Positions 7,968 through 64,000 of a DNA stretch of 64,000 nt are shown here, piece by piece. The DNA comes from Escherichia coli. Its GTDB lineage: Bacteria; Pseudomonadota; Gammaproteobacteria; Enterobacterales; Enterobacteriaceae. How positions within the stretch are numbered: the stretch's first letter is position 1; every line of letters starts with the position of its first letter. A program made the translations under genes and the position numbers. The notes beneath the pieces are model-generated. The model was not told the origin of the DNA. It was given only the letters and a program-made list of their open reading frames with translations, and ran no database searches. The stretch is taken from the NCBI RefSeq assembly GCF_030013595.1, contig NZ_CP122768.1; one strand, written 5' to 3'.

Positions 7968-8168
7968 CTAATCTTTCGGATAGATATCCGGTCTTAAGTC
8001 AGATTTCGTAATTGCACCTGACGTGCATTGCTCAAGTTTTTTAGCCAGCACAAAACTGGCTTTTTTATAGCCATTGAAAACCAGCCGTAAGTAGCCAGGA
8101 GTTGAGCCAACTTTTCCGGCCAACTCGCCCTGCTGTTCTTTGGTTAAAGAGTCCCAATACGCTTTCAT
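7968..8168 (-). CDS. Cro-like repressor
   Basis: 66 aa MKAYWDSLTKEQQGELAGKVGSTPGYLRLVFNGYKKASF... with HTH; GGAG SD; divergent from cI; ORF track's 167 aa is an upstream extension. Confidence 0.65.
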   Translation of the reverse strand: MKAYWDSLTKEQQGELAGKVGSTPGYLRLVFNGYKKASFVLAKKLEQCTSGAITKSDLRPDIYPKD

Positions 8169-8222
8169 ACAATATGTACCTCCGGTGTACATATTACATG
8201 ATTGAAATGAACCTTCAAGACA

Positions 8223-8243
8223 CTTGTACCTTAACGGTACAAG
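8223..8243. promoter_or_regulatory. Putative OR operator palindrome between cro and cI
   Basis: cttgtacc-ttaa-cggtacaag inverted repeat; further TGTAC half-sites at 8175 and 8186. Confidence 0.45.
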
Positions 8244-8258
8244 GGTTTTAATTTCGTT

Positions 8259-8933
8259 ATGAAAACAATCCATGACATCCGGCGGTCTAACGCCCGAAAA
8301 CTGAGAGATGGTGTTGGAGGGAATTCTTCCTTTGCCACTATGATTGATCGCGAGCCAACCCAGACCAGCAGGTTTATGGGAGATGGTGCTACTAAAAATA
8401 TCGGTGACAGCATGGCACGACACATCGAAAAATGTTTCGACCTGCCTGTCGGATGGCTCGATCAAGAACACCAGACAACGAACATCACAAAAAAACCTGA
8501 TGTTTCAATCACTAATAAACAAATCACATTAGTCCCTGTCATATCATGGGTACAGGCCGGAGCATGGAAAGAAGTTGGATATTCTGAGGTTGATTTGAGC
8601 ACAGCAGAAACGTATCCCTGCCCTGTACCCTGTGGGGAAATGACTTATATCTTGCGGGTGATAGGTGATTCAATGATTGATGAGTACCGCCCGGGAGACA
8701 TGATTTTTGTCGATCCTGAAGTACCTGCCTGCCACGGTGACGACGTTATTGCATTGATGCACGATACAGGTGAAACCACCTTCAAAAGGTTGATAGAAGA
8801 TGGGACACAGCGTTATCTCAAAGCGTTAAACCCAAACTGGCCTGAGCCTTACATTAAGATCAACGGTAATTGCTCTATAATTGGAACTGTGATTTTCTCA
8901 GGAAAACCAAGAAGATACAAAATCAAAGCCTAA
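8259..8933 (+). CDS. CI-like prophage repressor (HTH plus S24 LexA-like peptidase), CohE-like
   Basis: 224 aa; C-terminal S24 region ...VIGDSMIDEYRPGDMIFVDPEV...; divergent from cro. Confidence 0.8.
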   Translation: MKTIHDIRRSNARKLRDGVGGNSSFATMIDREPTQTSRFMGDGATKNIGDSMARHIEKCFDLPVGWLDQEHQTTNITKKPDVSITNKQITLVPVISWVQAGAWKEVGYSEVDLSTAETYPCPVPCGEMTYILRVIGDSMIDEYRPGDMIFVDPEVPACHGDDVIALMHDTGETTFKRLIEDGTQRYLKALNPNWPEPYIKINGNCSIIGTVIFSGKPRRYKIKA

Positions 8934-8946
8934 TCAATGTTTATGA

Positions 8947-8968
8947 ACCTGCTTCGGCAGGTTTTTTT
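8947..8968 (+). terminator. Rho-independent terminator after the cI-like gene
   Basis: acctgc-ttcg-gcaggt hairpin followed by tttttt. Confidence 0.6.
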
Positions 8969-8972
8969 ATAC

Positions 8973-9000
8973 TTGACAATGTACCCACGAGATACATAAT
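8973..9000 (+). promoter_or_regulatory. Putative pL-like sigma70 promoter with operator repeats
   Basis: TTGACA (8973-8978), 16-bp spacer, CATAAT (8995-9000); direct repeats atgtacccacgaga / atgtacccaagaga share the TGTACC operator half-site. Confidence 0.45.
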
Positions 9001-9081
9001 GTACCCAAGAGAAACAACAAACAGGCAGGACGCCCACGAAGTAGCCGCCTGGGGCATATGAAGTCCAGGATGATTCGTTAG

Positions 9082-9110
9082 CAACAAAAAAGCGCCCTAC
9101 AGGACGCTTA
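9082..9110 (-). terminator. Rho-independent terminator for the minus-strand moron
   Basis: On the minus strand: agcgtcc-tgta-gggcgct hairpin followed by tttttgttg, 38 nt past the stop at 9148. Confidence 0.45.
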
Positions 9111-9147
9111 GCTCTTTAACAATCTGGATATCCACAACAGTAGTAAT

Positions 9148-9639
9148 CTACAGATTGCCGTTAAGTTTTCTGGACAACTCCTCAATGGATGGAGGCGATA
9201 CGTAATCCGGATTTTTATTCATCAGAAACTTATTTTCACAGTGGAGGCACCTGCTTTTATGAAAAAGCTCATCTTCGCTAACCGGGAATGGTTGAAGTAT
9301 CGATACTATCTTTTGTCCAAAACATTTTGGGCAAAGATGCATGGTTATGCTGCCACCGTTCACGATTACCTCCTTCGAGTATACAAAAGTACCCGACTCA
9401 AGTTGGTTAAGGATATAGCCTTCCGTCTGAGCCTCAAAGTTTTCGAATTCTGCAATTTTAGCTTTGAGAGAAGCATTTATTTCTTGATAAGAGCCCACCA
9501 GTTCAACGAGAGACACGCATTCGCGCTGAATAGACGCAAGCTTTGAGTTCAGCTCACCAATAGCCGCATTTACTTCAGCTTGAGTTTTTGCCTCGTTCAT
9601 TAGTTTTGCAATCTGGGCTGTTTCACGAATAGCCGTCAT
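9148..9639 (-). CDS. Hypothetical coiled-coil / C4 zinc-ribbon protein (moron between cI and early-left operon)
   Basis: 163 aa from Met at 9639; N-terminal coiled-coil-like region, C-terminal CPKC...(26)...CLHC; opposite to pL transcription; AT-rich; ORF track extends implausibly to 9927. Confidence 0.5.
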   Translation of the reverse strand: MTAIRETAQIAKLMNEAKTQAEVNAAIGELNSKLASIQRECVSLVELVGSYQEINASLKAKIAEFENFEAQTEGYILNQLESGTFVYSKEVIVNGGSITMHLCPKCFGQKIVSILQPFPVSEDELFHKSRCLHCENKFLMNKNPDYVSPPSIEELSRKLNGNL

Positions 9640-9949
9640 TGCTGCCGTTAATTCAGCGATCACATTGAATACTCTTATTGTTGTTGGGGATATCCAGATT
9701 AACCGAATCCTTGTTGTTGGGGAATAACCAGGTCCACCTCGCCTGATGTGGCTAAAAGCAGGCACATAACAGCTAAGTATTTTCAACCAGAGAGAATCCT
9801 TAGCGTTGTGGTGAATGCGGCTCAGCGCACGCGGGTTAAGGTTGAGGCTGACAGTCGACCTTCTGTGGATACCCACCCGCCTGGTGTGCAACCTTCGCCA
9901 GGCACCGGGAGGCACCCGGCACCACAACTTTATGCTGTGTGTAGTCCTG

Positions 9950-9996
9950 GCGGTACCAGTTTGTACCCTTGCTTCCGGCTGGTACCGTCCTTTTTT
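9950..9996 (+). terminator. Rho-independent terminator in GC-rich non-coding region
   Basis: cggtaccag ... ctggtaccg 9-bp stem followed by tcctttttt. Confidence 0.5.
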
Positions 9997-9997
9997 G

Positions 9998-10084
9998 CAA
10001 AACAGAGAAGAGCATCACCGGACGACGGGCTCATAACCCAATCCATCCGGGCGGCTGCCACCGCAGGTGTTCTTCTCTGTTTTG
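9998..10084. repeat. Long imperfect inverted repeat / RNA stem
   Basis: caaaacagagaagagca and tgttcttctctgttttg (17 bp, one mismatch) flanking ~53 bp of GC-rich sequence. Confidence 0.4.
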
Positions 10085-10133
10085 TGGAGAAACCAACCGA
10101 CCTTGCAGGGTCGATATGATGAGGAGCAGCAAA

Positions 10134-10496
10134 ATGGCTAGCGAACGCAGTACTGATGTGCAGGCATTTATCGGGGAGCTGGACGGCGGCGTATTTGAAA
10201 CCAAAATCGGCGCAGTTCTCAGTGAGGTCGCTTCCGGTGTGATGAACACGAAAACCAAAGGGAAGGTCTCACTCAATCTGGAAATCGAACCGTTTGATGA
10301 GAACCGTGTGAAAATCAAACACAAACTCTCATATGTTCGCCCAACTAACCGCGGGAAAATTTCCGAAGAAGACACCACCGAAACGCCGATGTATGTCAAT
10401 CGCGGTGGTCGCCTGACTATTCTGCAGGAAGACCAGGGACAATTACTGACTCTTGCCGGTGAACCTGACGGAAAACTCCGCGCAGCAGGTCGTTAA
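10134..10496 (+). CDS. YfdP-like prophage protein
   Basis: 120 aa; GAGGAG SD 7 nt upstream of ATG; first gene of the early-left operon, gene order as in CPS-53 yfdPQRST. Confidence 0.6.
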   Translation: MASERSTDVQAFIGELDGGVFETKIGAVLSEVASGVMNTKTKGKVSLNLEIEPFDENRVKIKHKLSYVRPTNRGKISEEDTTETPMYVNRGGRLTILQEDQGQLLTLAGEPDGKLRAAGR

Positions 10497-10561
10497 TATC
10501 GTTCGTAATAAACTGATTATTTATCTCATCACTGAATATCTTTATATAGTGAGGACTTATT

Positions 10562-11386
10562 ATGTCTCAGAACTTAGACGCAACCGCAATTAATCAAATC
10601 CATGCCCTTATTTCTGCTCAGAGTGTTAATGAAATTATCAGTAAGATTGGTGCCGATGCTGTGGCATTGCCTGAGAATTTCCGCATTCATGATCTGGAAA
10701 AATTTAATTTAAATCGCTTCCGTTTCCGTGGTGCACTTTCCACTGCCAGCATCGATGATTTTACCCGTTATTCTAAAGATCTTGCAGATGAAGGCACCCG
10801 CTGCTTTATCGATGCCGATAATATGCGTGCCGTCAGTGTGCTTAACCTGGGTACTATTGATGAGCCAGGTCACGCAGATAACACTGCCACTCTCAAACTG
10901 AAAAAGACAGCACCGTTCTCTGCTCTGTTGTCTGTTAACGGCGAGCGTAACTCCCAGAAGTCACTGGCAGAATGGATCGAAGACTGGGCCGACTACCTTG
11001 TGGGCTTTGATGCTAATGGTGACGCCATTCAAGCAACAAAAGCGGCTGCGGCAGTCCGTAAAATCACGATTGAAGCAAACCATACCGCTGATTTTGAAGA
11101 TAATGACTTCAGCGGCAAACGCTCCCTGATGGAGTCTGTCGAAGCGAAGACCAAAGACATTATGCCAGTGGCATTTGAATTTAAATGCGTTCCGTTTGAA
11201 GGTCTGAAAGAACGTCCGTTTAAATTACGCCTCAGCATTATCACTGGCGATCGTCCTGTACTGGTTCTGCGCATTATTCAGCTGGAAGCGGTGCAGGAAG
11301 AAATGGCTAACGAATTTCGTGATCTGCTTGTTGAGAAATTCAAAGACAGCAAAGTAGAAACCTTTATTGGTACTTTCACCGCCTGA
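10562..11386 (+). CDS. yfdQ: YfdQ family protein (DUF2303)
   Basis: 274 aa, same length and position as CPS-53 YfdQ; TGAGGA SD. Confidence 0.7.
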
Positions 11387-11397
11387 TTTCATTACTG

Positions 11398-11420
11398 CAA
11401 ATGCCCCTGCGGGGGCATTT
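11398..11420 (+). terminator. Stable stem-loop between yfdQ and yfdR (possible attenuator)
   Basis: aatgcccc-tgcg-ggggcatt perfect 8-bp stem; weak T tract. Confidence 0.35.
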
Positions 11421-11513
11421 ATGGAAACGTAATTAACTCAATAATCACCGGATGGTGAGGGCTTCCTTTTACCAGAATTCAGCGCGGTGCAGTGCATATA
11501 CGTGGAGAACAAA

Positions 11514-12050
11514 ATGTCATTTATTAAAACTTTTTCCGGGAAGCATTTTTATTATGACAAGATAAATAAAGACGACATCGATATTAACGATATCGCGGTT
11601 TCCCTTTCAAATATCTGTCGCTTTGCCGGTCATCTTTCGCACTTCTACAGCGTCGCCCAACATGCGGTTCTTTGCAGCCAGCTGGTGCCGCAGGAATTTG
11701 CTTTTGAAGCGTTAATGCATGATGCAACAGAAGCGTATTGCCAGGACATTCCCGCACCACTGAAACGCCTTCTTCCTGACTATAAACGGATGGAAGAAAA
11801 AATAGACGCCGTAATCCGTGAGAAATACGGGTTACCCCCAGTTATGAGTACACCCGTGAAATATGCCGATCTCATCATGCTGGCAACCGAACGCCGCGAT
11901 CTCGGGCTTGATGATGGCTCTTTCTGGCCTGTACTGGAAGGCATCCCGGCAACAGAGATGTTCAACGTGATTCCACTGGCACCGGGTCATGCCTACGGGA
12001 TGTTTATGGAACGTTTTAACGATTTATCGGAGTTACGCAAATGCGCATGA
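11514..12050 (+). CDS. yfdR: HD-domain 5'-deoxynucleotidase YfdR-like
   Basis: 178 aa from MSFIKTF; HD-family residues (...QHAVLCSQ..., ...HDATEAY...); ORF track start at 11487 is an upstream extension. Confidence 0.7.
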   Translation: MSFIKTFSGKHFYYDKINKDDIDINDIAVSLSNICRFAGHLSHFYSVAQHAVLCSQLVPQEFAFEALMHDATEAYCQDIPAPLKRLLPDYKRMEEKIDAVIREKYGLPPVMSTPVKYADLIMLATERRDLGLDDGSFWPVLEGIPATEMFNVIPLAPGHAYGMFMERFNDLSELRKCA

Positions 12051-12403
12051 ATGTTTTCGAAATGGAAGGGTTTCTTCGCGGGAAATGTGTACCGCGAGAT
12101 CTGAAAGTGAACGAAACAAATGCTGAGTACCTGTTACGTAAATTCGACGCGCTTGAAGCTAAATGTGCGGCACTGGAAAACAAAATAATACCAGTGTCAG
12201 CTGAACTGCCACCAGCAAATGAAAGTGTTCTGTTATTTGATGCTAACGGAGAAGGCTGGCTGATTGGCTGGCGTTCTCTCTGGTACACCTGGGGACAAAA
12301 AGAAACCGGAGAATGGCAGTGGACATTTCAGGTCGGGGACCTTGAAAACGTCAATATCACTCACTGGGCAGTAATGCCAAAAGCACCGGAGGCTGGAGCA
12401 TAA
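12041..12403 (+). CDS. yfdS: YfdS-like prophage protein (DUF551)
   Basis: 120 aa, follows yfdR as in CPS-53. Confidence 0.65.
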   Translation: MRMNVFEMEGFLRGKCVPRDLKVNETNAEYLLRKFDALEAKCAALENKIIPVSAELPPANESVLLFDANGEGWLIGWRSLWYTWGQKETGEWQWTFQVGDLENVNITHWAVMPKAPEAGA

Positions 12404-12708
12404 TGACCACATTTACCAATAAAGAACTGATTAAAGAAATCAAAGAACGAATCAGCAGCCTAGAGGTTCGAGACGATATTGAGCGCCGTGCTTATGAAAT
12501 CGCACTCGTATCTCTGGAAGTAGAGCCAGATGAACGCGAAGCCTATGAATTATTCATGGAAAAGCGTTTCGGTGACTTAGTAGATCGTCGGAGAGTAAAA
12601 AACGGCGATAACGAATACATGGCATGGGATATGACTCTCGGTTGGATCGTCTGGCAGCAACGAGCTGGTATCCATTTTTCAACAATGACACAGCAAGAGG
12701 TGAAATAA
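12403..12708 (+). CDS. yfdT: YfdT-like prophage protein
   Basis: 101 aa, coupled to yfdS (ATGA-type overlap). Confidence 0.65.
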   Translation: MTTFTNKELIKEIKERISSLEVRDDIERRAYEIALVSLEVEPDEREAYELFMEKRFGDLVDRRRVKNGDNEYMAWDMTLGWIVWQQRAGIHFSTMTQQEVK

Positions 12709-13079
12709 TGGAGCCATACAGCCTCACACTCGATGAGGCCTGTCAGTTTCTTAAGATATCCAGACCAACCGCCACCAACTGGATACGAACAGGCCGCCTA
12801 CAGGCAACACGTAAAGATCCAACCAAGCCAAAATCTCCTTACCTCACAACACGGCAAGCTTGCATTGCGGCGCTTCAGTCTCCGCTGCATACTGTCCAGG
12901 TGAGCGCGGGTGATGGCATAACAGAGGAAAGAAAATGTCACTCTTCCGCAGAAATGAAATATGGTATGCCTCGTATTCGCTCCCGGGCGGGAAACGAATT
13001 AAGGAATCTCTTGGCACAAAGGACAAGCGGCAAGCTCAGGAGTTGCACGACAAGCGAAAAGCAGAACTCTGGCGAGTAG
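12708..13079 (+). CDS. Putative excisionase (AlpA/Xis-like HTH); 3' end uncertain, frame overlaps int
   Basis: Starts TAATG-coupled to yfdT; N-terminal HTH-like segment [28 protein letters not shown]; frame stays open to 13079. Confidence 0.45.
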
Positions 13080-14098
13080 AAAAGCTAGGGGATTTACCTG
13101 ATGTCACTTTTGAAGAGGCCTGCCTAAGATGGCTTGAGGAAAAAGCTGATAAAAAATCTCTCGATTCAGATAAAAGCCGGATTGAGTTCTGGCTTGAACA
13201 TTTTGAGGGTATAAGGCTTAAAGATATCTCGGAGGCAAAGATTTACTCTGCTGTAAGCAGAATGCATAACAGAAAGACGAAAGAAATATGGAAACAGAAA
13301 GTTCAGGCCGCCATCAGGAAAGGTAAAGAACCGCCTGTTTATGAACCAAAGCCAGTATCAACTCAGACAAAGGCAAAGCATCTTGCCATGATAAAGGCCA
13401 TTCTCCGTGCTGCAGAACGCGACTGGAAGTGGCTGGAAAAAGCGCCTGTCATCAAGATACCAGCGGTCAGAAACAAGCGAGTCAGATGGCTGGAAAAGGA
13501 GGAAGCAAAACGCCTTATTGATGAGTGCCCCGAACCACTGAAATCTGTCGTCAAGTTTGCGCTGGCAACTGGTCTGAGAAAGTCGAACATCATAAATCTG
13601 GAATGGCAACAAATCGACATGCAGCGACGAGTTGCCTGGGTGAATCCAGAAGAGAGCAAATCAAACCGCGCCATTGGTGTGGCGCTGAACGATACCGCCT
13701 GTAAAGTGTTGCGTGATCAAATAGGCAAGCATCACAAATGGGTGTTTGTACATACCAAGGCGGCTAAGCGAGCAGATGGAACATCAACGCCTGCGGTCAG
13801 GAAGATGCGCATCGACAGCAAGACATCATGGCTATCAGCTTGTCGTCGTGCAGGAATTGAAGATTTCCGTTTCCATGACCTCAGACACACCTGGGCAAGC
13901 TGGCTGATCCAGTCAGGCGTCCCATTATCTGTGCTTCAGGAAATGGGCGGATGGGAGTCCATAGAAATGGTTCGTAGGTATGCTCACCTTGCGCCTAATC
14001 ATTTGACAGAGCATGCAAGGAAAATAGACGACATTTTTGGTGATAATGTCCCAAATATGTCCCACTGTGGAATTATGGAGGATATAAAGAAGGCGTAA
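12935..14098 (+). CDS. intD: Tyrosine integrase (IntD-like), adjacent to argU
   Basis: 387 aa; C-terminal catalytic region ...[17 protein letters not shown]...VRRYAHL; ends 16 bp from the tRNA 3' end. Confidence 0.85.
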
Positions 14099-14113
14099 CT
14101 GATTGAATTGTAA

Positions 14114-14190
14114 TGGCGCGCCCTGCAGGATTCGAACCTGCGGCCCACGACTTAGAAGGTCGTTGCTCTATCCAACTGAGCTAAGGGCGC
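14114..14190 (-). tRNA. argU: tRNA-Arg (anticodon UCU), argU
   Basis: Reverse complement GCGCCCTTAGCTCAGTTGGATAGAGCAACGACCTTCTAAGTCGTGGGCCGCAGGTTCGAATCCTGCAGGGCGCGCCA, 77 nt, cloverleaf-compatible. Confidence 0.95.
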
Positions 14191-14432
14191 GTTGATACCG
14201 CAATGCGGTGTAATCGCGTGAATTATACGGTCAACCCTTGCTGAGTCAATGGCTTTTGATCTGGTTGCTGAACAAGTGAACGACCGCGTCTGATTTTCTG
14301 ATTTATTTCGCTATAGCGGCAAACAAACGTACATCGCTGCGCGTCTGAATCAAGAAAACTCGTATTTTCATGTATCAAAGTACAATTTCCCGCCCTAACG
14401 GAAAATTGTCCGATCCAATGAGACTGGTAACT

Positions 14433-15065
14433 ATGAAACCAACGTCGGTGATCATTATGGATACTCATCCTATCATCAGAATGTCTATTGAAGTTCTGTT
14501 GCAAAAAAACAATGAATTGCAAATTGTCCTGAAAACGGATGATTATCGCATAACCATCGATTATCTCCGAACCCGTCCTGTTGATTTAATCATTATGGAT
14601 ATAGACTTGCCCGGAACAGACGGTTTTACCTTCCTGAAAAGGATCAAACAAATCCAGAGCACAGTGAAAGTATTATTTTTATCATCGAAATCAGAATGCT
14701 TTTATGCTGGCAGAGCGATACAAGCTGGTGCTAACGGTTTTGTCAGTAAATGCAATGATCAGAATGATATTTTTCACGCCGTTCAGATGATCCTCTCCGG
14801 ATACACTTTTTTTCCCAGCGAAACGCTCAACTATATAAAAAGCAATAAATGCAGTACGAATAGTTCAACGGTCACGGTGCTATCTAATCGTGAAGTGACC
14901 ATATTACGTTATCTGGTTAGCGGATTATCCAATAAAGAAATTGCCGATAAGTTATTACTTAGCAATAAAACAGTTAGTGCGCATAAATCTAATATTTATG
15001 GCAAGCTAGGTTTGCATTCAATTGTAGAGCTTATCGACTACGCCAAATTATATGAATTAATATAA
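14433..15065 (+). CDS. fimZ: Fimbrial response regulator FimZ (LuxR-type)
   Basis: 210 aa from MKPTSVIIMDTHPI; receiver domain plus C-terminal LuxR HTH. Confidence 0.9.
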   Translation: MKPTSVIIMDTHPIIRMSIEVLLQKNNELQIVLKTDDYRITIDYLRTRPVDLIIMDIDLPGTDGFTFLKRIKQIQSTVKVLFLSSKSECFYAGRAIQAGANGFVSKCNDQNDIFHAVQMILSGYTFFPSETLNYIKSNKCSTNSSTVTVLSNREVTILRYLVSGLSNKEIADKLLLSNKTVSAHKSNIYGKLGLHSIVELIDYAKLYELI

Positions 15066-15067
15066 TA

Positions 15068-15583
15068 TTAATTGTAATTGATCATAAATATCGCATCCGC
15101 TTTCGCCACACCTGGCTGAACACCGCTGGCTAACGCTCGATAATTGGCAAAAAAGTTTAGTGTGACATTGCCATTTGCATCTACTTCCTCAGTCGGACTC
15201 GCCTCCCCCAGTGCGAGCCGGGAGCGATCGCTATTACGTAATTCGATGGCGACGGTTTGTGCCATTGCGGGATCATCCAGAGCCAGCAGGTTGGCATCAG
15301 ATGCCGGCGTTCCCGTAAATAAAATCGCAACTGAACCCGGAGGACATCCCTCCAGCCGCAGGCTAAAAGGGACGAGTGCCGTGGTATCGCCAGCGCTCAG
15401 TAATTGTGTCGTAGGCCATCTGCCTAAATCTACCGTCTTATCCTTATCCGCTGTGTTTACGGTACAGGAGAAATCAACAACGTTACCGTGCAAATTGATA
15501 TTAATCGTTCCTAAAGGGTCAACTGCCCATCCACTGGAACTCCACAGTAGCCCGCAGAAACAGCTAAAGAGTACTCTTCTCAT
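15068..15583 (-). CDS. sfmF: Fimbrial minor subunit SfmF
   Basis: 171 aa from MRRVLFSCF; fimbrial subunit fold; ORF track upstream extension ignored. Confidence 0.85.
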   Translation of the reverse strand: MRRVLFSCFCGLLWSSSGWAVDPLGTININLHGNVVDFSCTVNTADKDKTVDLGRWPTTQLLSAGDTTALVPFSLRLEGCPPGSVAILFTGTPASDANLLALDDPAMAQTVAIELRNSDRSRLALGEASPTEEVDANGNVTLNFFANYRALASGVQPGVAKADAIFMINYN

Positions 15584-15593
15584 TCTCCGTACC

Positions 15594-16601
15594 TCATTGA
15601 TAATCGACGCGTAAATACCCCAGCGCGCTAAACGGCCCTTCGGTCGGTTTTTGACCGGTAATACTGATAGGCCAGGCGCGAAGTGTGACATTGGCTGCCG
15701 CAGCTGCATCCAGACGGAAAGGAATAACGCTATTGAGATCGTTAGGCGTGATCGGCGTATCGTTCTGATCGGCCACAATAAAACCTAAATCCTGATTGTC
15801 CGACACCATCGCCTGACCAGAAACGGCACTGGCTTCCAGACGCATTGTTAAATAAGCCTGCGCAGCAACATTCGTACATTTGATCGCAATGCTCTTGGTT
15901 TGCGGCATGACACCAGCTGGTCGATTCCCCGGCCCTGCCGCACTAAATAACGATGCGCCGATATCACCAAAATCAAATTCAACAATTTGCCCGGCATTTA
16001 ATTCGCAGTTTTGCGGTACTTCAACCCGGCCACCAAAACTAATGGTATAAACAGGTGTAACCAACGGATCGTTAGGCGTTGATGTCACATACACGGTAAA
16101 CATCACCTGTCTGGGGATCTCCACCATGTTAATAAAGGGACGAATAACCTTTAAACGAAATATCAAACGAGAATCCATCACCCCGAACGGAAGGTTTTGC
16201 GAAACGTTAGGATCTGTTCCCATACGGATATAATTTTGCGGGGGAAACTGAATATCCATCACGCTATCAACCAGACTCATCGCACCTAATAGATAATCAT
16301 TTAATTGCATATATTTATAATTATCGATAGTTTCCTGAACAATAAAGTTGGTGACATAACTACGGTATGTATAATTCACCAGCGTGCCGGGTGGACAAAT
16401 TGCTGACACACCTACCCAGCCGGATTTTTCCGGTAAAACAACAATCTGGCCTGGCTGGTTATTGGTGCTATTAAAGACATTTGAGAGATCATAGTGTTCA
16501 TCTTCTGCTACGCCAGTACTATTTGCACAAACAGTAGCCCAGGATATGTTTGCCAGACACAAACATGCCATTGCCAATAATAATCTGCAGATTATCTTCA
16601 T
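15594..16601 (-). CDS. sfmH: Fimbrial adhesin-like subunit SfmH
   Basis: FimH-like two-domain protein with signal peptide; start may be the Met 10 codons downstream. Confidence 0.8.
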   Translation of the reverse strand: MKIICRLLLAMACLCLANISWATVCANSTGVAEDEHYDLSNVFNSTNNQPGQIVVLPEKSGWVGVSAICPPGTLVNYTYRSYVTNFIVQETIDNYKYMQLNDYLLGAMSLVDSVMDIQFPPQNYIRMGTDPNVSQNLPFGVMDSRLIFRLKVIRPFINMVEIPRQVMFTVYVTSTPNDPLVTPVYTISFGGRVEVPQNCELNAGQIVEFDFGDIGASLFSAAGPGNRPAGVMPQTKSIAIKCTNVAAQAYLTMRLEASAVSGQAMVSDNQDLGFIVADQNDTPITPNDLNSVIPFRLDAAAAANVTLRAWPISITGQKPTEGPFSALGYLRVDYQ

Positions 16602-57254: not shown

Positions 57255-57709
57255 TGGAGTTAATGGTCGTTCATCCACATATTTTCTGGCTCAGTCTCGG
57301 CGGGTTGCTGCTGGCAGCCGAGATGCTGGGCGGAAATGGTTATCTGTTGTGGAGCGGCGTGGCAGCGGTGATTACCGGCCTGGTGGTCTGGCTGTTGCCG
57401 CTGGGTTGGGAGTGGCAAGGGGTGATGTTTGCCGTCCTGACGCTGCTCGCCGCCTGGCTGTGGTGGAAATGGTTGTCGCGGCGGGTGCGCGAACAAAAGC
57501 ACAGCGACAGTCATTTAAACCAGCGCGGGCAGCAGCTGATTGGCCGACGTTTTGTGCTGGAATCTCCGCTGGTCAACGGGCGCGGTCATATGCGCGTCGG
57601 TGACAGTTCATGGCCTGTCAGCGCCAGCGAGGATCTCGGCGCAGGTACGCATGTTGAAGTCATTGCGATAGAAGGGATAACGCTGATCATCCGTGCGGTC
57701 ATCGCCTGA
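57251..57709 (+). CDS. ybbJ: NfeD-like membrane protein YbbJ
   Basis: 152 aa, coupled to qmcA. Confidence 0.85.
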
Positions 57710-57711
57710 TG

Positions 57712-57792
57712 CGACGCTGACGCGTCTTATCATGCCTACAAAATATGCCCGAATCGTAGGCCGGATAAGGCGCTTGCGCCGCATCCGGCATA
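57712..57792. repeat. REP palindromic elements
   Basis: gcgacgctgacgcgtc...aggccggataaggcgcttgcgccgcatccggc. Confidence 0.5.
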
Positions 57793-57811
57793 TAGCCGAG
57801 TAGAGGCAAAA

Positions 57812-58174
57812 TTACTCTTCCCGGCCTTTACCCATACTTTTTTGGTCTTCATCCGGATAGTGTTTTTTTAGATATTCCAGGACGTTTTTATTGACCTTGT
57901 GTTGGGTATACACCCACCCTTTCCAGTAATCAGGTTGGTCCAGGTAAACTTCTGGCGGAATGGTGAAATCAGAAAGCGTTAACCATTCGGCTAACAGATC
58001 GGGGTTTCGTTTCTGGATTAACTGCAACAGCATAATCAGTGACATAGCTGAGGCAGGAGCCGTACTATCGCCACTTAAATATTTCCACACTGTTGACCGG
58101 TTCGAACGAAAAAGGATCGGTAGCAATGCCCGGTCCAGATTCATTTCATTAAAAATCTTCTCAAATTCATTCAT
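57812..58174 (-). CDS. Hypothetical small protein, possible DNA-binding regulator, divergent from adhesin operon
   Basis: 120 aa; HTH-like segment NRSTVWKYLSGDSTAPASAMSL. Confidence 0.45.
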   Translation of the reverse strand: MNEFEKIFNEMNLDRALLPILFRSNRSTVWKYLSGDSTAPASAMSLIMLLQLIQKRNPDLLAEWLTLSDFTIPPEVYLDQPDYWKGWVYTQHKVNKNVLEYLKKHYPDEDQKSMGKGREE

Positions 58175-58358
58175 TTAAATTTTCCTGCCTGGCGTAAACC
58201 TCTTAAAAATTGAGATTTATCAAAGAAACGCATTTTAGCACACATCAGGAACCGCTTCACGTTTAGTCCAGAAACAGAATTTATTTCGCTTATCAAAACA
58301 AGTCTTTACTCTTTTTTACATTGAAAGAGCACAAAATGATTTTCGATTTTATTTATAT

Positions 58359-58379
58359 AAGAAACATTTTTTGTTTCTT
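58359..58379. promoter_or_regulatory. Palindromic operator-like site (aagaaaca-N5-tgtttctt)
   Basis: 21-bp palindrome in the divergent promoter region. Confidence 0.35.
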
Positions 58380-58490
58380 ATTGGTGGTGTTTACGCTTAC
58401 ACCAGACAAAAATGCGCTTTACATCACACAAATGGCGGCGTAGATTTCGATTAAATTGCAACGCAGTTTATTTCTTAAAACAATATTATT

Positions 58491-58507
58491 TGTTTCTTAT
58501 AGAAACA
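58491..58507. promoter_or_regulatory. Palindromic operator-like site (tgtttct-tat-agaaaca)
   Basis: Same half-site as 58359-58379 in opposite arrangement, about 35 bp upstream of the adhesin ATG. Confidence 0.35.
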
Positions 58508-58540
58508 TTAATGCGACTTGTTTTGAACAAGAGAAAATGA

Positions 58541-59557
58541 ATGAAAACTGTAAACGTAGCTTTACTGGCACTCATAATTTCAGCAACATCCAGCCCTGTT
58601 GTTTTAGCTGGTGATACCATTGAAGCGGCGGCAACAGAGCTTTCAGCCATTAACTCTGGCATGTCGCAATCGGAGATTGAGCAGAAGATTACCCGCTTTT
58701 TAGAACGCACAGACAACAGCCCCGCTGCGTATACCTATTTGACTGAACATCACTACATCCCTTCTGAAACACCTGATACCACTCAGACTCCCCCTGTCCA
58801 GACAGATCCTGACGCAGGACAAAAAACCGTTGCCGCTACAGGTGATGTACAGACAACCGCCCGTTATCAGAGCATGATCAACGCCCGACAGTCTGCGGTA
58901 ACTGATGCCCAGCAAACGCAAATTACAGAGCAACAGGCGCAGATCGTAGCCACACAAAAAACGCTCGCCGCGACTGGAGATACGCAAAATACCGCGCATT
59001 ATCAGGAGATGATTAATGCCAGGCTGGCGGCTCAAAATGAGGCTAATCAGCGCACTACCACGGAACAAGGGCAGAAAATGAATGCACTGACAACCGATGT
59101 GGCAGCACAACAGCAAAAAGAAAGGGCTCAATACGATAAACAAATGCAAAGTCTGGCGCAGAAGTCTGTCCAGGCACATGAGCAAATTGAAAGTCTGAGA
59201 CAAGATTCCGCACAAACGCAGCAACAGTTAACCAACACGCAAAAACGGGTCGCAGATAACAGCCAACAAATTAACACGCTCAATAACCATTTCGATTCTC
59301 TGAAAAACGAAGTTGAGGACAATCGTAAAGAAGCCAATGCGGGAACTGCATCAGCCATCGCTATCGCCTCACAACCACAGGTGAAAACCGGTGACTTGAT
59401 GATGGTGTCAGCGGGAGCGGGAACCTTCAACGGTGAATCTGCGGTGTCTGTAGGAACATCTTTTAATGCCGGAACGCATACGGTACTTAAAGCAGGTATT
59501 TCTGCGGATACACAATCTGATTTCGGTGCGGGTGTCGGCGTGGGATATTCGTTCTAA
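58541..59557 (+). CDS. Short trimeric autotransporter adhesin (YadA-like C-terminal anchor)
   Basis: 338 aa; signal peptide; repeated stalk motif AATGD(V/T)Q(T/N)TA(R/H)YQ(S/E)MINAR; anchor ...GDLMMVSAGAGTFNGESAVSVGTSFNAG...GVGVGYSF ending in aromatic residue. Confidence 0.7.
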   Translation: MKTVNVALLALIISATSSPVVLAGDTIEAAATELSAINSGMSQSEIEQKITRFLERTDNSPAAYTYLTEHHYIPSETPDTTQTPPVQTDPDAGQKTVAATGDVQTTARYQSMINARQSAVTDAQQTQITEQQAQIVATQKTLAATGDTQNTAHYQEMINARLAAQNEANQRTTTEQGQKMNALTTDVAAQQQKERAQYDKQMQSLAQKSVQAHEQIESLRQDSAQTQQQLTNTQKRVADNSQQINTLNNHFDSLKNEVEDNRKEANAGTASAIAIASQPQVKTGDLMMVSAGAGTFNGESAVSVGTSFNAGTHTVLKAGISADTQSDFGAGVGVGYSF

Positions 59558-59610: not shown

Positions 59611-60033
59611 ATGATGAATAGCTCCATTAAATCGTTTTCCCTGCTGGCGGTTATATTACTGGCTGGCTGTAGTTCACCCACTTCCCGCATCGCAGATTGC
59701 CAGGCGCAGGGCGTCAGCCATGACACCTGTTATCTCGCAGAACAACAGCGTCAGACGGCTATTTTAAGTGCATCCGAAGCGCAGGCATTTAAAAATGCAG
59801 AAGCCGCACAACATGCCCAGGCGGCAAAGAAAGCCATTTATAAAGGATTTGGCATGACCTTTAGAATGAGCAGTAAAAACTTTGCTTATCTCAATGATTC
59901 ATTATGTGCAATTGATGAAGACAATAAAGATGCCACTGTTTATCAGTCAGGTCTGTATAACGTCATTGTTTATCATCACACAGGAAAAGTCGCCTTAATG
60001 AAAGAAGGTCAGTTTGTGGGTTATTTAAAATGA
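59611..60033 (+). CDS. Lipoprotein (lipobox LLAGC)
   Basis: 140 aa; signal peptide with LAGC lipobox; AAGG SD. Confidence 0.6.
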   Translation: MMNSSIKSFSLLAVILLAGCSSPTSRIADCQAQGVSHDTCYLAEQQRQTAILSASEAQAFKNAEAAQHAQAAKKAIYKGFGMTFRMSSKNFAYLNDSLCAIDEDNKDATVYQSGLYNVIVYHHTGKVALMKEGQFVGYLK

Positions 60034-60233
60034 AGGAGCAAAGGAAAATCCCCCTGACGCATATTATGATTATCGGTGCGTTTATTTTTGCCTTCTTGCA
60101 AGTGGTGTTATTAGCCTCCCTGGTTCACGCTGTGAATGTTAACAACGAAATCCAGGAAGGCTTATTTCAATCGGGGCGCATAATGGTAGAAAGTTTGCAG
60201 CATATTCTTTCGGTGCAAACGGGGATTAACTGA
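60030..60233 (+). CDS. Small single-pass membrane protein
   Basis: 67 aa; TM segment IMIIGAFIFAFLQVVLLASLV; ATGA-type coupling to the lipoprotein gene. Confidence 0.5.
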   Translation: MKEQRKIPLTHIMIIGAFIFAFLQVVLLASLVHAVNVNNEIQEGLFQSGRIMVESLQHILSVQTGIN

Positions 60234-60236
60234 TTT

Positions 60237-60644
60237 TCACCCCGCCCGATGATGACAGCAGCCGGAGAGATTTTCGATAATCGGGCAGTCGGCGCTGTCA
60301 TCACCAGGGCAGGCATTCGCCAGCGCCAGTAGCTGGTCGCGCATGGATTGCAGCTCCTCAATGTGCCGTTCGATCTCCGCTACCTTCTCCAGCGTGCGCC
60401 GTTTTACATCGGCGCTGTGACGCTGTGGGTCGTTAAACAGATTCACCAGTTCGCCGCTCTCTTCCAGGTTAAAGCCCACCTGGCGCGCCTGGCGCAGTAA
60501 GGTCAGTTCGTTGAGATGCTGCTGCGTGTAGGTTCGATAACCATTTTCGCTGCGCATCGGCGGCGTCACCAGCCCCTTCTCTTCATAGAAGCGAATGGCT
60601 TTGCTGGTCAGGCCGGTAATTTTTGCTACATCGCTAATGTTCAT
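60237..60644 (-). CDS. cueR: Copper-responsive MerR-family regulator CueR
   Basis: 135 aa [26 protein letters not shown]... with C-terminal Cys pair. Confidence 0.95.
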
Positions 60645-61816
60645 CGTTCGCGCAACGCCTCCTGTGCTTTATTAAAGGGTTTCAACAGATAATCCAGCAC
60701 GCTTTTTTTGCCGGTGCGGATATCGACCGTCGCCACCATGCCGGGAAATATCGGAAACTGCTGTTTATGTTTATTTTCCAGATGGTTGCTGAAAGTGCGA
60801 ATGTACACCCGATAGTAATAAACATCGCGCCGCACTTCATCCTGCACGGTGTCTGGTGATATCACCGCCACTTCTCCCGGCAGGCCGCCGTAGATGGAGT
60901 AATCGTAGGCAGTTATTTTCACCAGCGATTTTTGCCCCGGGTGGATAAACGCCACATCGCGCGGGGAGATTTTTGCCTCAATCAGCAGTTGCTCATCCAG
61001 CGGCACGATGGTCATCAGTTTACCACCGGGGGCAATGACGCCGCCAACCGTGGTGACGTCAATGTCCTGAACAATGCCACGTACCGGCGCGGTAAAGTTG
61101 AGCCGGGTGAGAGAATCTTCCCGCCCGCGGATCACCGAACGCTGGGTTTCCACTTCCGCATTGGCTTTCGCTAACTCTTCGCGCGCCTGAACGTAATATT
61201 GCGTGCGCACGTCGCTGAGTTTGTTTTCCAGTTCATTGGCCTGGCGTTGCAGGCGCAGCACTTCAACGCTGCTCGCCGCCCCCTGTTTTACCAGCGGCAG
61301 GGTCATCGCCAGTTCGCGGTTGACCAGGCTAATCCCCTGCGTCAGCCCGGTGGTGGCTTTGTTCAACCCGTCGCGGCGAGTGTTGTACAACGCCGTTTCC
61401 GACTCGATAAGTTCGGGGAATTTATTCAGTTCGTCAGGGAAGACCAGCGGTTTATTACTCACTTCCGCCCGCAGCCGCGCCGAGGTTGCCAGCGCCGCGT
61501 ACAGCCGCGACATTGCTTCCTGGACGTCGGATTCCGTTTTGGTGCGGTTAAGCTGCGCCAGCGGCTGGCCCTGTTCAACAATATCGCCAACCTTGACGTC
61601 GAGATGATACAGAATTCCGCCTTCCAGCGACTGCACCACCTGTTCGCGCCCGGAAGGTTCTACCGTGCCGCTGCCGGTGGTGACTTCATCAAGCTGGAAG
61701 TACCACGCCCAGCCGAGAAAACAGAGCAGCATCACAGCGGTAACGCGTACCGCCAGCGCCGAACGCGGCAGGCGGGGTTCAGTCAGGCCACGGTTGTATT
61801 GCAGTTGTCCATTCAT
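60641..61816 (-). CDS. Type I secretion membrane fusion protein (HlyD family)
   Basis: 391 aa; N-terminal TM, long coiled-coil, C-terminal beta domain. Confidence 0.85.
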
Positions 61817-64000
61817 GCGGCAGACCCCTTATTCTTCTCCTGCAACACCACCCGTCGCGTCGTGGGTTCGCTCTGTTCACGCAAAATGGCCTCTTTCGCT
61901 CCATCCATCACAATCCGCCCCTGATCCATCACGATGATCCTGTCCACCAGTTGCAGCATCGCCGTGCGGTGAGTAGCGATGACCAGCGTGCGATGCCCAA
62001 CCCATTGTTTTAGTTGTTCAATTAAATACGCTTCTGCCATTTCGTCCAGCGAGGCGCTGGGTTCATCGAGCAGCACGATATTGGGTTGAGAGATGAGTAG
62101 CCGCGCCAGCAGCAGCGTTTGCCGCTGACCGCCAGAAAGACCAAATCCCCCTTCCTGAATCATGTAGTTGAGGCCGTTTTTCTGCTTCTGCACAAAGGGC
62201 AGCGCCCCGCTGAGCGTTAACGCGCGTTCGATATCTTCATCGCTGGCTTCCGGCATCCCCATGGTGAGGTTTTCCCGCAGTGAACCGAAAAATAGTCGCC
62301 CGGTCTGGCTGAGTAGCCCCATGTCGCGGCGCAGATCCGCCGGATCAAGCTGACCGATGCTGATGTTATCCAGCAGCACCTGCCCCTGCTGGGCGATACG
62401 CATTCCGGCGAGCATTTGCAGTAGCGTTGATTTACCCGCGCCGTTGCGCCCAAGAATGGCGATTTTCTCTCCGGCCTGAATGTTGAGTTTGCCAATCGCC
62501 ACATCGGCAATTTTCTCTTCTTCGTCGTAATAAAAGATAGCGTTGCTGAACTGATAATTGCCGTGCAGTACCGCTTTATGCACCAGCTTGCCGTGTTCCG
62601 GCTGATCCACCGGGCGCTTCATCAGTTCATCAAGGCCGTTGCGTGCCACTTTCGCCTGCTGCCAGCGCGAGAGTACGCCGGAAATCTGCGACAGCGGCGC
62701 AATAGTACGCGAAGCCAGGATCGTCGTTCCCACCAGTGCGCCGGTGGTCATGTCGCCGTTCATCACCATAAAGCAGCCCACCAACAGCACCACGACGTAG
62801 ACGATGGATTGCACTTCCTGAGTCCAGGTGAGCAGTAGCCCGGTGAGAAAACGTTGCTTCATACTGATGGACGAGGCCACGTCGTTGGTGTGGTTCCACT
62901 GATTCTGAAAACGCTGTTCAGCACGCAGCAGTTTAATATCTTCAATCGACTGCACGGCTTCCACCAGCGTAGCGTTGCGTACCGCTGACTCGCGCATTCC
63001 TTCGTTCGCCAGCCGCGCCAGCGGGCGTTGCACCAGCAGGCCAGGGATCACTAATAACGGCAGTGCCAGCAAAACCACCAGCACCAGCCAACCGCCGATC
63101 ATCCACAAAATAAAGACAAACAGCAGGAAGAACGGCAGATCCGCCACTGCACCAATGGTGGTGGAGGTGATCAGCTCCCGCACCGATTCCAGTTCGCGGA
63201 TCTGCGAGATAAACGATCCGGTGGATTTCGATCGCACGTTATTTTTCAGCCGTAATGCGTGACCAAAAACGCGATCCGAAATGCGCAGATCCGCCCGCTT
63301 GCCGATCACATCCGAAAGATGTGTGCGCACCATACGCATACAGAATTCAAACAGGATCGCCATCATCACCCCGGCGAACAGCACCCACAGCGTCGGGTAG
63401 GACTGCGCCGGAACCACCCGGTCGTAAACCTGCATCGAGAAAATCATCGCCGCCAGCGCCAGCACGTTCGCCACCAGTGACGCCAGCATAATATCGCCAT
63501 AGCGCCGCCAGTCTTTTAGCGAGAGATTCCAGAACCAGTTCGCCTGATACGGGCGAATGTAGTCATCCACCCGCGCGTCAGGGATTGCGCTGAGCGGGCG
63601 CAGTAGCGCCAGTTCAACGATTTTATCCTCAACATCCGCGACGTTAAGCGTAGTTTCCAGCCCTTCGTCACCGCTGAACTGAATGCTGATATTGTCGTGA
63701 TTGTCACGGCGGGTGATTTGCGCCAGCGTGGTCGGAATAGAGGTATCGACCGTCAGGACAAAATCACTGGAGGAGGTGATATTCCCCGCCAAATCCACCA
63801 CTCGCGCGCTGTAGGTGTAGGCACCGCTGACCAGCCCGCTGTCGCTGTAGGTCCAGTTCAGCGCGCCGACCATCGTCACCGCGCCTAACAGCAGGCCGTT
63901 GCGGTAGAGGTAAACCACTTCACCGCTGGCAAGCGGCGCGGAGAGCACGCCGTTCAGCAATGGCGTAGTGTCGTCGGTGGCCTGCGAACTGCTTAATGTC
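61813..64000 (-). CDS. Type I secretion ABC transporter (HlyB/PrtD-like) with in-frame N-terminal Ig-like (Big) adhesin-type repeat; ORF open at window end, 5' partial
   Basis: TMD then NBD with Walker A GRNGAGKST, signature LSGGQRQ, Walker B VLLDEPSASLD; frame has no stop through 64000; ORF track start at 63960 is a TTG. Confidence 0.85.
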   Translation of the reverse strand, partial: TLSSSQATDDTTPLLNGVLSAPLASGEVVYLYRNGLLLGAVTMVGALNWTYSDSGLVSGAYTYSARVVDLAGNITSSSDFVLTVDTSIPTTLAQITRRDNHDNISIQFSGDEGLETTLNVADVEDKIVELALLRPLSAIPDARVDDYIRPYQANWFWNLSLKDWRRYGDIMLASLVANVLALAAMIFSMQVYDRVVPAQSYPTLWVLFAGVMMAILFEFCMRMVRTHLSDVIGKRADLRISDRVFGHALRLKNNVRSKSTGSFISQIRELESVRELITSTTIGAVADLPFFLLFVFILWMIGGWLVLVVLLALPLLVIPGLLVQRPLARLANEGMRESAVRNATLVEAVQSIEDIKLLRAEQRFQNQWNHTNDVASSISMKQRFLTGLLLTWTQEVQSIVYVVVLLVGCFMVMNGDMTTGALVGTTILASRTIAPLSQISGVLSRWQQAKVARNGLDELMKRPVDQPEHGKLVHKAVLHGNYQFSNAIFYYDEEEKIADVAIGKLNIQAGEKIAILGRNGAGKSTLLQMLAGMRIAQQGQVLLDNISIGQLDPADLRRDMGLLSQTGRLFFGSLRENLTMGMPEASDEDIERALTLSGALPFVQKQKNGLNYMIQEGGFGLSGGQRQTLLLARLLISQPNIVLLDEPSASLDEMAEAYLIEQLKQWVGHRTLVIATHRTAMLQLVDRIIVMDQGRIVMDGAKEAILREQSEPTTRRVVLQEKNKGSAA

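Follow-up and report, generated by a model that had tools for sequence, protein, structure and literature searches.

What decides when the adhesin encoded in O-island OI-29 of Escherichia coli is made? The adhesin gene lies in an islet between ybbJ and cueR, and the divergent intergenic region of this islet (58175–58540 of the 64-kb stretch of DNA analyzed here, the window) carries two palindromes. A sequence-only reading had proposed that they are operators of a dedicated regulator, possibly the 120-aa protein encoded on the other side of the region. This proposal is supported by the helix-turn-helix (HTH) fold predicted for the protein, by synteny, motif enrichment and a phylogenetic footprint, by the position of the sites on the promoters and by the co-variation of word and protein, and from these we infer binding. 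We consider it likely that the AGAAAC(A) words in 58175–58540 are operator half-sites of the 120-aa XRE-type HTH protein and that this protein is a dedicated local regulator.

The OI-29 islet and its distribution

The intergenic region was correctly described as an AT-rich, divergent stretch of 366 bp between the 120-aa gene and the adhesin gene. Its GC content is 31%, compared with 51% for the whole window. In an identical strain the gene order is qmcA, ybbJ, the 120-aa gene, the adhesin gene, a 140-aa gene, a 67-aa gene and cueR, and the annotation there calls the 120-aa, 140-aa and 67-aa genes hypothetical. The 366-bp region is present once per genome in 1413 of the 5426 complete E. coli genomes (about one quarter), and carriers include O157:H7, EPEC E2348/69 and many ExPEC strains. 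The longer segment 57000–60500 is matched over at least 80% of its length in 1378 complete genomes.

The module of regulator and adhesin genes is inserted at slightly different points, yet repeatedly near qmcA–ybbJ (L002-L004, L008, L010 and L031 compared with the window). In Escherichia the module separates ybbJ from cueR; in other genera its flanking genes are qmcA and either fetA or cnoX, and in Serratia fonticola it is a neighbor of qmcA. REP-type palindromic elements occupy 57700–57826 at the left end of the E. coli islet, where they separate ybbJ from the 3' end of the 120-aa gene; sub-threshold Rfam matches to naRNA4 were found there on both strands, outside the intergenic region. Past cueR, genes for a type I secretion system (HlyD family, ABC permease/ATPase) occupy 60641–63960; this is the RTX-like locus described as syntenic in EAEC 042 and O157:H7 (PMC2808357). 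Elsewhere in the window, a lambdoid prophage segment at about 8000–16000 (RusA, KilA-N, QuuD antiterminator, Dam-like methylase) is followed by a copy of ISVsa5 and then by the fimZ/sfm fimbrial genes.

The 120-aa protein and its family

The proposed dedicated regulator, z0640 of OI-29, is encoded on the minus strand at 57812..58174. Its predicted fold consists of an XRE/Cro-type HTH in the N-terminal ~65 residues and a helical part in the C-terminal ~55 residues. The AF2 fold was obtained from a 23-sequence alignment that included distant members; the 9 close homologues alone gave a pLDDT of 56. The model contains a compact helical DNA-binding domain with the helix-turn-helix in helices 2–3, and on this prediction we assign the protein with confidence to the XRE/Cro-type HTH fold. 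At the level of sequence profiles, the E. coli protein has no NCBIfam match and no significant Pfam match, the only hit being MqsA_antitoxin with an E value of 0.082 and 13.5 bits (cutoff 30). Some family members reach the MqsA, Xre-like-HTH, HTH_3 and HTH_26 models at E values of 2e-5 to 3e-4, which are sub-threshold. Searching the regulator family by sequence against the PDB returned only noise and no relative.

The family comprises 23 representatives among 1.84 billion proteins and is found in 4 of 100,044 species genomes. Homologues with 62–85% identity occur in Pseudocitrobacter, Candidatus Symbiopectobacterium and several metagenomic enterobacteria. In 11 of the 15 lineages examined the regulator gene is divergent from a YadA_anchor gene, at an intergenic distance of ~240–410 bp, and the linkage is kept where the chromosomal context differs. 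The 11 linked lineages include homologues that are only 21–48% identical (Lelliottia, Hafnia and a Serratia-like group). No toxin gene or toxin family is adjacent to the regulator gene in any examined locus. A 2026 survey of trimeric autotransporter neighbourhoods found no specifically adjacent regulator (bioRxiv 10.64898/2026.01.22.700529). As far as we found, this is the first family of regulators with a specific link to genes of trimeric autotransporters.

Two palindromes share one half-site

Palindrome 1 (58357–58381) reads ATAAGAAACA-N5-TGTTTCTTAT and consists of the convergent half-sites C and D; palindrome 2 (58491–58507) reads TGTTTCT-TAT-AGAAACA and consists of the divergent half-sites E and F. 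Both are present where the sequence-only reading had placed them, with the correction that palindrome 1 is longer than it had claimed: its arms are 10 nt long and 100% complementary. Its view that both are built on one half-site is confirmed, as AGAAACA is common to the two. The palindromes are part of a group of at least six AGAAAC words in the region. Between the palindromes the polarity of the half-sites is opposite, and the spacing is different as well. A direct repeat of 34 nt (D1, 58348–58381 and 58467–58500, 79% identical) relates the two palindrome regions.

Over the whole window AGAAACA occurs as often as expected by chance (10 copies versus 8.3 expected). Five of these 10 copies, however, lie inside the 366-bp region, the fifth at 58270. 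Shuffling this AT-rich region 5000 times with dinucleotides preserved never gave five copies, and two separate palindromes on one half-site arose in only 4 of the 5000 shuffles. One 10-nt inverted repeat at some place in the region, by itself, was present in 625 of 3000 shuffles (21%). Because such a lone repeat is not rare, the significance lies in the shared half-site and not in either palindrome alone.

Two other repeats were considered. The gatttcgatt repeats pointed out previously exist as two near-copies, at 58338–58348 (GATTTTCGATT) and at 58443–58452 (GATTTCGATT, which is the -10/start region of the adhesin promoter), but the copies differ by one base (an indel), are at chance level and are not conserved. 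Exact direct repeats of an 8-mer arise in 97% of shuffles and the first copy is already unconserved in O157:H7 and E2348/69, so that the motif, unconserved within E. coli, was rejected as a feature. The second repeat is a perfect 12-nt inverted repeat, TCAAAACAAGTC / GACTTGTTTTGA, at 58293–58304 and 58515–58526. Its copies are 210 bp apart and bracket the adhesin promoter, an arrangement that 53 of 3000 shuffles reproduced. Only the left copy is conserved in other genera; the right one is already unconserved in O157 and E2348/69. As each copy contains AAAAC, a degenerate half-site, the two may be weak additional candidate operators fit for looping.

The half-site is conserved and enriched across genera

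In an unbiased k-mer test on nine lineages, AGAAAC was the top word with 41 occurrences observed versus 2.6 expected (z 24). Next came GAAACA and the blocks of both promoters. Each orthologous intergenic region in these lineages contains 4–8 copies of GAAAC, where ~1 is expected. The extended half-site consensus is roughly CCAaTAGAAACA. The orthologous regions are ~300–380 bp long and alignable for homologues with 62–85% identity; because they are homologous, part of the shared motif content is inherited and not independently maintained.

A PWM trained on non-Escherichia loci only was used to scan the 64-kb window. The four palindrome arms of E. coli ranked 1 and 2 (palindrome 2) and 3 and 5 (palindrome 1). 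At 12 bits or more there were 16 matches in the window, 6 of them inside the 366 bp. The motif search elsewhere that the sequence-only reading had suggested, carried out within the 64-kb window, gave no enrichment outside 58175–58540. Scattered PWM matches at 9–14 kb were treated as chance, as they are unclustered and lie in AT-rich DNA inside the lambdoid prophage.

Within Escherichia, the words AGAAAC/GTTTCT are invariant among variants that are 84–99% identical, while the palindrome spacers and flanks vary. The spacer of palindrome 1, for example, is TTTTT, ATTTT, GATTA or AATTA between fixed arms. Invariant half-sites amid drifting spacers and flanks are, as judged from these alignments, a phylogenetic footprint.

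Arrangement of half-sites on the two predicted promoters

On the regulator side, we predict from the sequence an extended -10 element, TGcTAAAAT (58232..58240, minus strand), with a start near 58225. The block ATTTTA[G/C]CA is conserved across genera, and its minus strand would correspond to the extended -10 TGnTAAAAT. A consensus promoter scan, which requires a -35 element, did not recover this -10. Half-site A (AGAAAC, 58224..58229, plus strand; PWM 13.2 bits) overlaps the predicted start and is a candidate autoregulatory operator. It is invariant in 11 Escherichia variants, reads CAAAGAAAC in Pseudocitrobacter, Symbiopectobacterium and the metagenomic L008, and is matched by AAGAAAC at the same place in L013. 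Half-site B (AGAAACA, 58270..58276, plus strand) lies ~45–50 bp upstream of the same predicted start. It is likewise invariant within Escherichia and appears as [C/T]AGAAAC in Pseudocitrobacter, Symbiopectobacterium and L008.

The adhesin operon has a predicted sigma-70 promoter at 58418..58446 on the plus strand (TTTACA, 17-bp spacer, TAGATT) with a predicted start near 58453. In the consensus scan this was the sole promoter-like site on the plus strand within the intergenic region. It corresponds to the block GCTTTACATCACA...GGCGTAnATT, the stretch most conserved across genera, and GGCGTA and CTTTAC are among the most enriched 6-mers. The center of palindrome 1 lies ~84 bp upstream of the predicted adhesin start. 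Its right arm is a positionally conserved site (GTTTCCAATAGAAAC in other genera), and its architecture is repeated in Symbiopectobacterium with GAAAC and in Hafnia with GAACA.

Downstream of the predicted start, three sense-strand sites follow each other. The first (GCAAC, 58458..58462, plus strand), at ~+6, is GAAAC in E. whittamii and other genera. The second (58477..58481, plus strand) is a degenerate AAAAC in this strain and AGAAAC in L008, L010 and L013. The third is the right arm of palindrome 2 (58501–58507), an invariant AGAAAC. Measured from the -10 hexamer of the adhesin promoter, the offsets of these phased sites are conserved at ~+16, +38 and +60. Palindrome 2 itself lies at ~+47, in the predicted 5' untranslated region of the adhesin gene, and its left arm is an addition of the Escherichia lineage that reads GTTGCT in several strains.

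Across lineages, pairs of GAAAC were seen in convergent (N7), divergent (N1/N5/N7) and direct (22-bp period) orientation. Most often the word recurs as a direct repeat on the sense strand, with a period of 22 bp (5 instances in 4 lineages). With opposite polarity, unequal spacing and a 22-bp direct repeat as the commonest form, the array is unlike the preference of a rigid symmetric dimer. On the evidence of sequence comparison, the functional and conserved unit is the half-site (A)GAAAC(A), inverted or directly repeated with 22-bp phasing, and not the palindromes as such.

The word changes with the regulator subfamily

In Lelliottia and one further lineage TAGAAAC is kept. The Hafnia homologues, whose protein is 32% identical, have no GAAAC and instead five GAACA; in the place of palindrome 1 stands AAGAACA-N5-TGTTCTT, with one base fewer per arm. 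The Hafnia enrichment (5 versus 1) fails correction for all k-mers and comes from two related loci only. In the Serratia-like subfamily the word is AGCTAC/GTAGCT with 11 occurrences observed versus 0.6 expected. The shift from GAAAC to GAACA and AGCTAC by subfamily therefore points to a co-evolving cognate regulator and not to a host-wide factor.

Alternative explanations

Could the GAAAC words be sites of a host-wide regulator or nucleoid protein such as OmpR, H-NS, IHF or Fis, with the 120-aa protein doing something else? OmpR sites, as in the ompF/ompC operators, have a GxxxC/GAAAC core. A region with 31% GC is typical of H-NS targets, and TCGATTAAATT at 58447–58457 resembles the H-NS high-affinity motif TCGATAAATT. 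Moreover, z0639, the adhesin gene, responds to temperature and osmolarity (PMC5826968). Nevertheless, the word changes with the regulator subfamily, though the hosts are all Enterobacterales with the same global regulators, and it is not enriched elsewhere in the 64-kb window. The 10-bp tandem phasing of an OmpR array is absent as well: the dinucleotide AC recurs at ±22 (10–12 of 51 sites) and not at ±10 (1–2 of 51). We therefore regard a host-wide factor as an improbable reader of these words, although it is the strongest competitor of the dedicated regulator. Silencing by H-NS may well coexist with such a regulator; it leaves a specific 6–7-mer unexplained.

The downstream elements might instead act in the mRNA, with palindrome 2 forming a hairpin and the AGAAAC array being read by an RNA-binding factor, perhaps the HTH protein itself. 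Aca2 is an HTH protein reported as RNA-binding, which provides a precedent. Against this, the fold of the 5' untranslated region is not unusual (z -0.99), the hairpin of palindrome 2 amounts to only -5 kcal/mol and no Rfam match was found within the intergenic region. In strains with the GTTGCT left arm a stem pair is broken without a compensating change. The word also shows the same degree of conservation upstream of the promoter, in either orientation, and over the regulator gene's start. Taken as an explanation of the array, action in RNA is even less probable than a host-wide factor.

That the array is a chance, low-complexity pattern of AT-rich DNA or a functionless relic of the duplication D1 might be argued from the frequency of single 10-nt inverted repeats in shuffles and from the 79% identity of the D1 copies. 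This explanation is effectively refuted and retains very little probability: two palindromes on the same half-site are rare in shuffles, the cross-genus enrichment has a z of 24, the arms are invariant while the spacers vary, and the E. coli sites take top ranks in a scan with the cross-validated PWM.

A promoter switch, either invertible in the manner of fimS by means of the 12-nt repeats (58293–58304/58515–58526) or phase-variable through Dam/GATC, is hardly credible. The perfect repeat does bracket the adhesin promoter, a finding matched by few shuffles, but the islet contains no recombinase gene and the right repeat is unconserved in O157 and E2348/69. With a query that spans both gene starts, 1413 genomes match at 80% coverage or more, and among the matches listed, those spread down the ranking included, all are single collinear pieces and none is an inverted form. 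Dam-dependent variation of the pap or agn43 type finds no GATC in 58175–58540.

Just as hard to credit is that the words are bound by the product of z0639 itself, published as the transcription factor GmrA on EMSA and ChIP-qPCR evidence at the fliA promoter (PMC5826968), because this protein carries a Sec signal peptide together with a coiled coil and an outer-membrane anchor of the YadA type, its only Pfam match named for DNA binding is TMF_DNA_bd at an E value of 0.2, and the GAAAC word goes with the small HTH protein, whereas the adhesins differ widely from one lineage to the next.

The adhesin operon and the GmrA assignment

The adhesin gene z0639, published as 'gmrA', lies at 58541..59557 on the plus strand (also L026 2892-3908) and encodes a YadA-family trimeric autotransporter of 338 aa. 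RefSeq annotates it as 'YadA family autotransporter adhesin'. Its translation shows the hallmarks of the class, namely a Sec signal peptide (MKTVNVALLALIISATSSPVVLA|GD), a coiled-coil stalk and a YadA-type 4-strand anchor. The anchor matches PF03895 YadA_anchor at residues 279–338 (E value 7e-12, 45.6 bits, cutoff 22.7), and EmaA and Vomp anchors are matched as well. The TMF_DNA_bd hit mentioned above falls inside the coiled coil.

Yang et al. 2018 gave z0639 the name "GmrA" and presented it as an activator of transcription with binding at the fliA promoter; no motility phenotype was reported for z0638 or z0640 (PMC5826968). Its assignment as a transcription factor recurs in later reviews. In the genome paper on EAEC 042 the orthologue Ec042-0536 is listed as a trimeric autotransporter of unknown function. 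We mapped the published gmrA deletion primers and found that they flank exactly the 338-aa gene, with zero mismatches on an O157:H7 genome. Accordingly, z0639 is the 338-aa autotransporter, z0640 the HTH protein and z0638 the 140-aa lipoprotein. Since the primers map to an autotransporter with signal peptide and outer-membrane anchor, and the HTH protein is z0640, the GmrA transcription-factor assignment in the EHEC literature looks doubtful on sequence grounds.

Two further genes complete the islet. The lipoprotein gene z0638 (59611..60033, plus strand) encodes 140 aa with the lipobox LLAG|C and is annotated as a lipoprotein; the last gene (60030..60233, plus strand) encodes a 67-aa single-pass membrane protein. 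In several homologous loci, too, the adhesin gene is followed by an ORF about as long as the 140-aa gene, and an ORF of 64–68 aa is conserved at the position of the 67-aa gene in Pseudocitrobacter and L010/L011. Compared with solved structures, SadB included, neither protein showed sequence similarity. It is possible that the two are helper proteins of the autotransporter.

The YadA_anchor adhesins vary from 338 to 627 aa across lineages and some have collagen repeats. In the Serratia-like subfamily, the autotransporters at L032 647-2257 and L036 448-2223 combine collagen triple-helix repeats (PF01391) with a YadA anchor. In E. coli variants of the islet (L027-L030, intergenic region 84–94% identical) the annotated YadA gene starts 700–1100 bp downstream of the conserved ATG, which suggests an internal annotated start in genes with a longer or variable passenger domain or with frameshifts.

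Comparison with known regulators

Local regulators of adhesins in E. coli include PapB/PapI and EcpR, and the autotransporter genes upaG/ehaG are silenced by H-NS. With these systems OI-29 shares an AT-rich, horizontally acquired adhesin promoter and a neighboring small regulator gene. PapB/PapI and EcpR belong to a different regulator fold family, however, and GATC/Lrp sites are absent here.

A closer parallel is found in SinR and SlrR of Bacillus subtilis, two proteins of ~110–120 aa in which, as predicted for z0640, an N-terminal XRE HTH is followed by a C-terminal helical domain. They repress biofilm matrix operons, a role similar to the control of surface and adhesion genes proposed for z0640. 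SinR combines an XRE-type HTH with a C-terminal oligomerization domain and recognizes a 7-bp word that is present in multiple copies and orientations at target promoters (PMC3163267). The SinR word GTTCTYT (ARAGAAC on the other strand; PMC3163267) and the AAGAAAC described here are both short, asymmetric and multi-copy, in inverted and tandem arrangement. Such a short asymmetric word in multiple copies and orientations is what we observe at this locus.

Autoregulators of the Aca2/DUF1870 type, HigA2/MqsA antitoxins and C controller proteins are partnered with a toxin, anti-CRISPR or restriction gene, whereas the partner here is a trimeric autotransporter. Matches of z0640-family sequences to models of the Aca2/HigA2/MqsA type are below Pfam thresholds. 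A type II antitoxin has a cognate toxin gene in its operon; here, in 11 of 15 lineages, the gene next to the regulator gene lies on the opposite strand and encodes a YadA anchor. The OI-29/'GmrA' paper deals with the same locus, gives the regulatory role to z0639 and does not describe the intergenic motif or the HTH of z0640 (PMC5826968). Neither the motif nor the HTH nature of z0640 is described in any paper we found.

A model for local control of the adhesin operon

The regulator–operator reading is based on motif enrichment, conservation, synteny, fold and the change of the word with the subfamily; from these we infer binding, oligomeric state, promoter start points and the sign of regulation. 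In the model, z0640 would exert local control over the adhesin operon, which comprises the z0639 autotransporter, the z0638 lipoprotein and the 67-aa membrane protein. One half-site overlaps the predicted start of the regulator's own gene, which suggests autoregulation, and z0640 is probably autoregulated. On the adhesin promoter the protein would encounter the palindrome at ~-84 and three sense sites from ~+6 to +55 that are 22 bp, or two helical turns, apart. In Escherichia, the last of these phased sites has gained an inverted partner, giving rise to palindrome 2.

The protein probably binds as an oligomer by means of its C-terminal helical domain. Similar to SinR, the oligomer may occupy several short sites in varied orientations, possibly bridged by looping. 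Because the sites lie over and downstream of both start points, repression appears to be somewhat the likelier sign of regulation. Deletion of z0640 did not copy the phenotype of the z0639 deletion (PMC5826968), which argues against z0640 as an essential activator.

The proposed mechanism, in which an HTH regulator encoded nearby acts on operators within the divergent promoter region, is conventional, and the general surprise is modest. What is new is an unannotated regulator family together with an intergenic array of its likely operators; the kind of gene switch is ordinary. For OI-29, whose adhesin-like gene has entered the EHEC literature as a flagellar transcription factor, the findings suggest that the published functional assignment needs re-examination. 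Overall, the model of the islet would provide a concrete regulatory account of when the adhesin is made.
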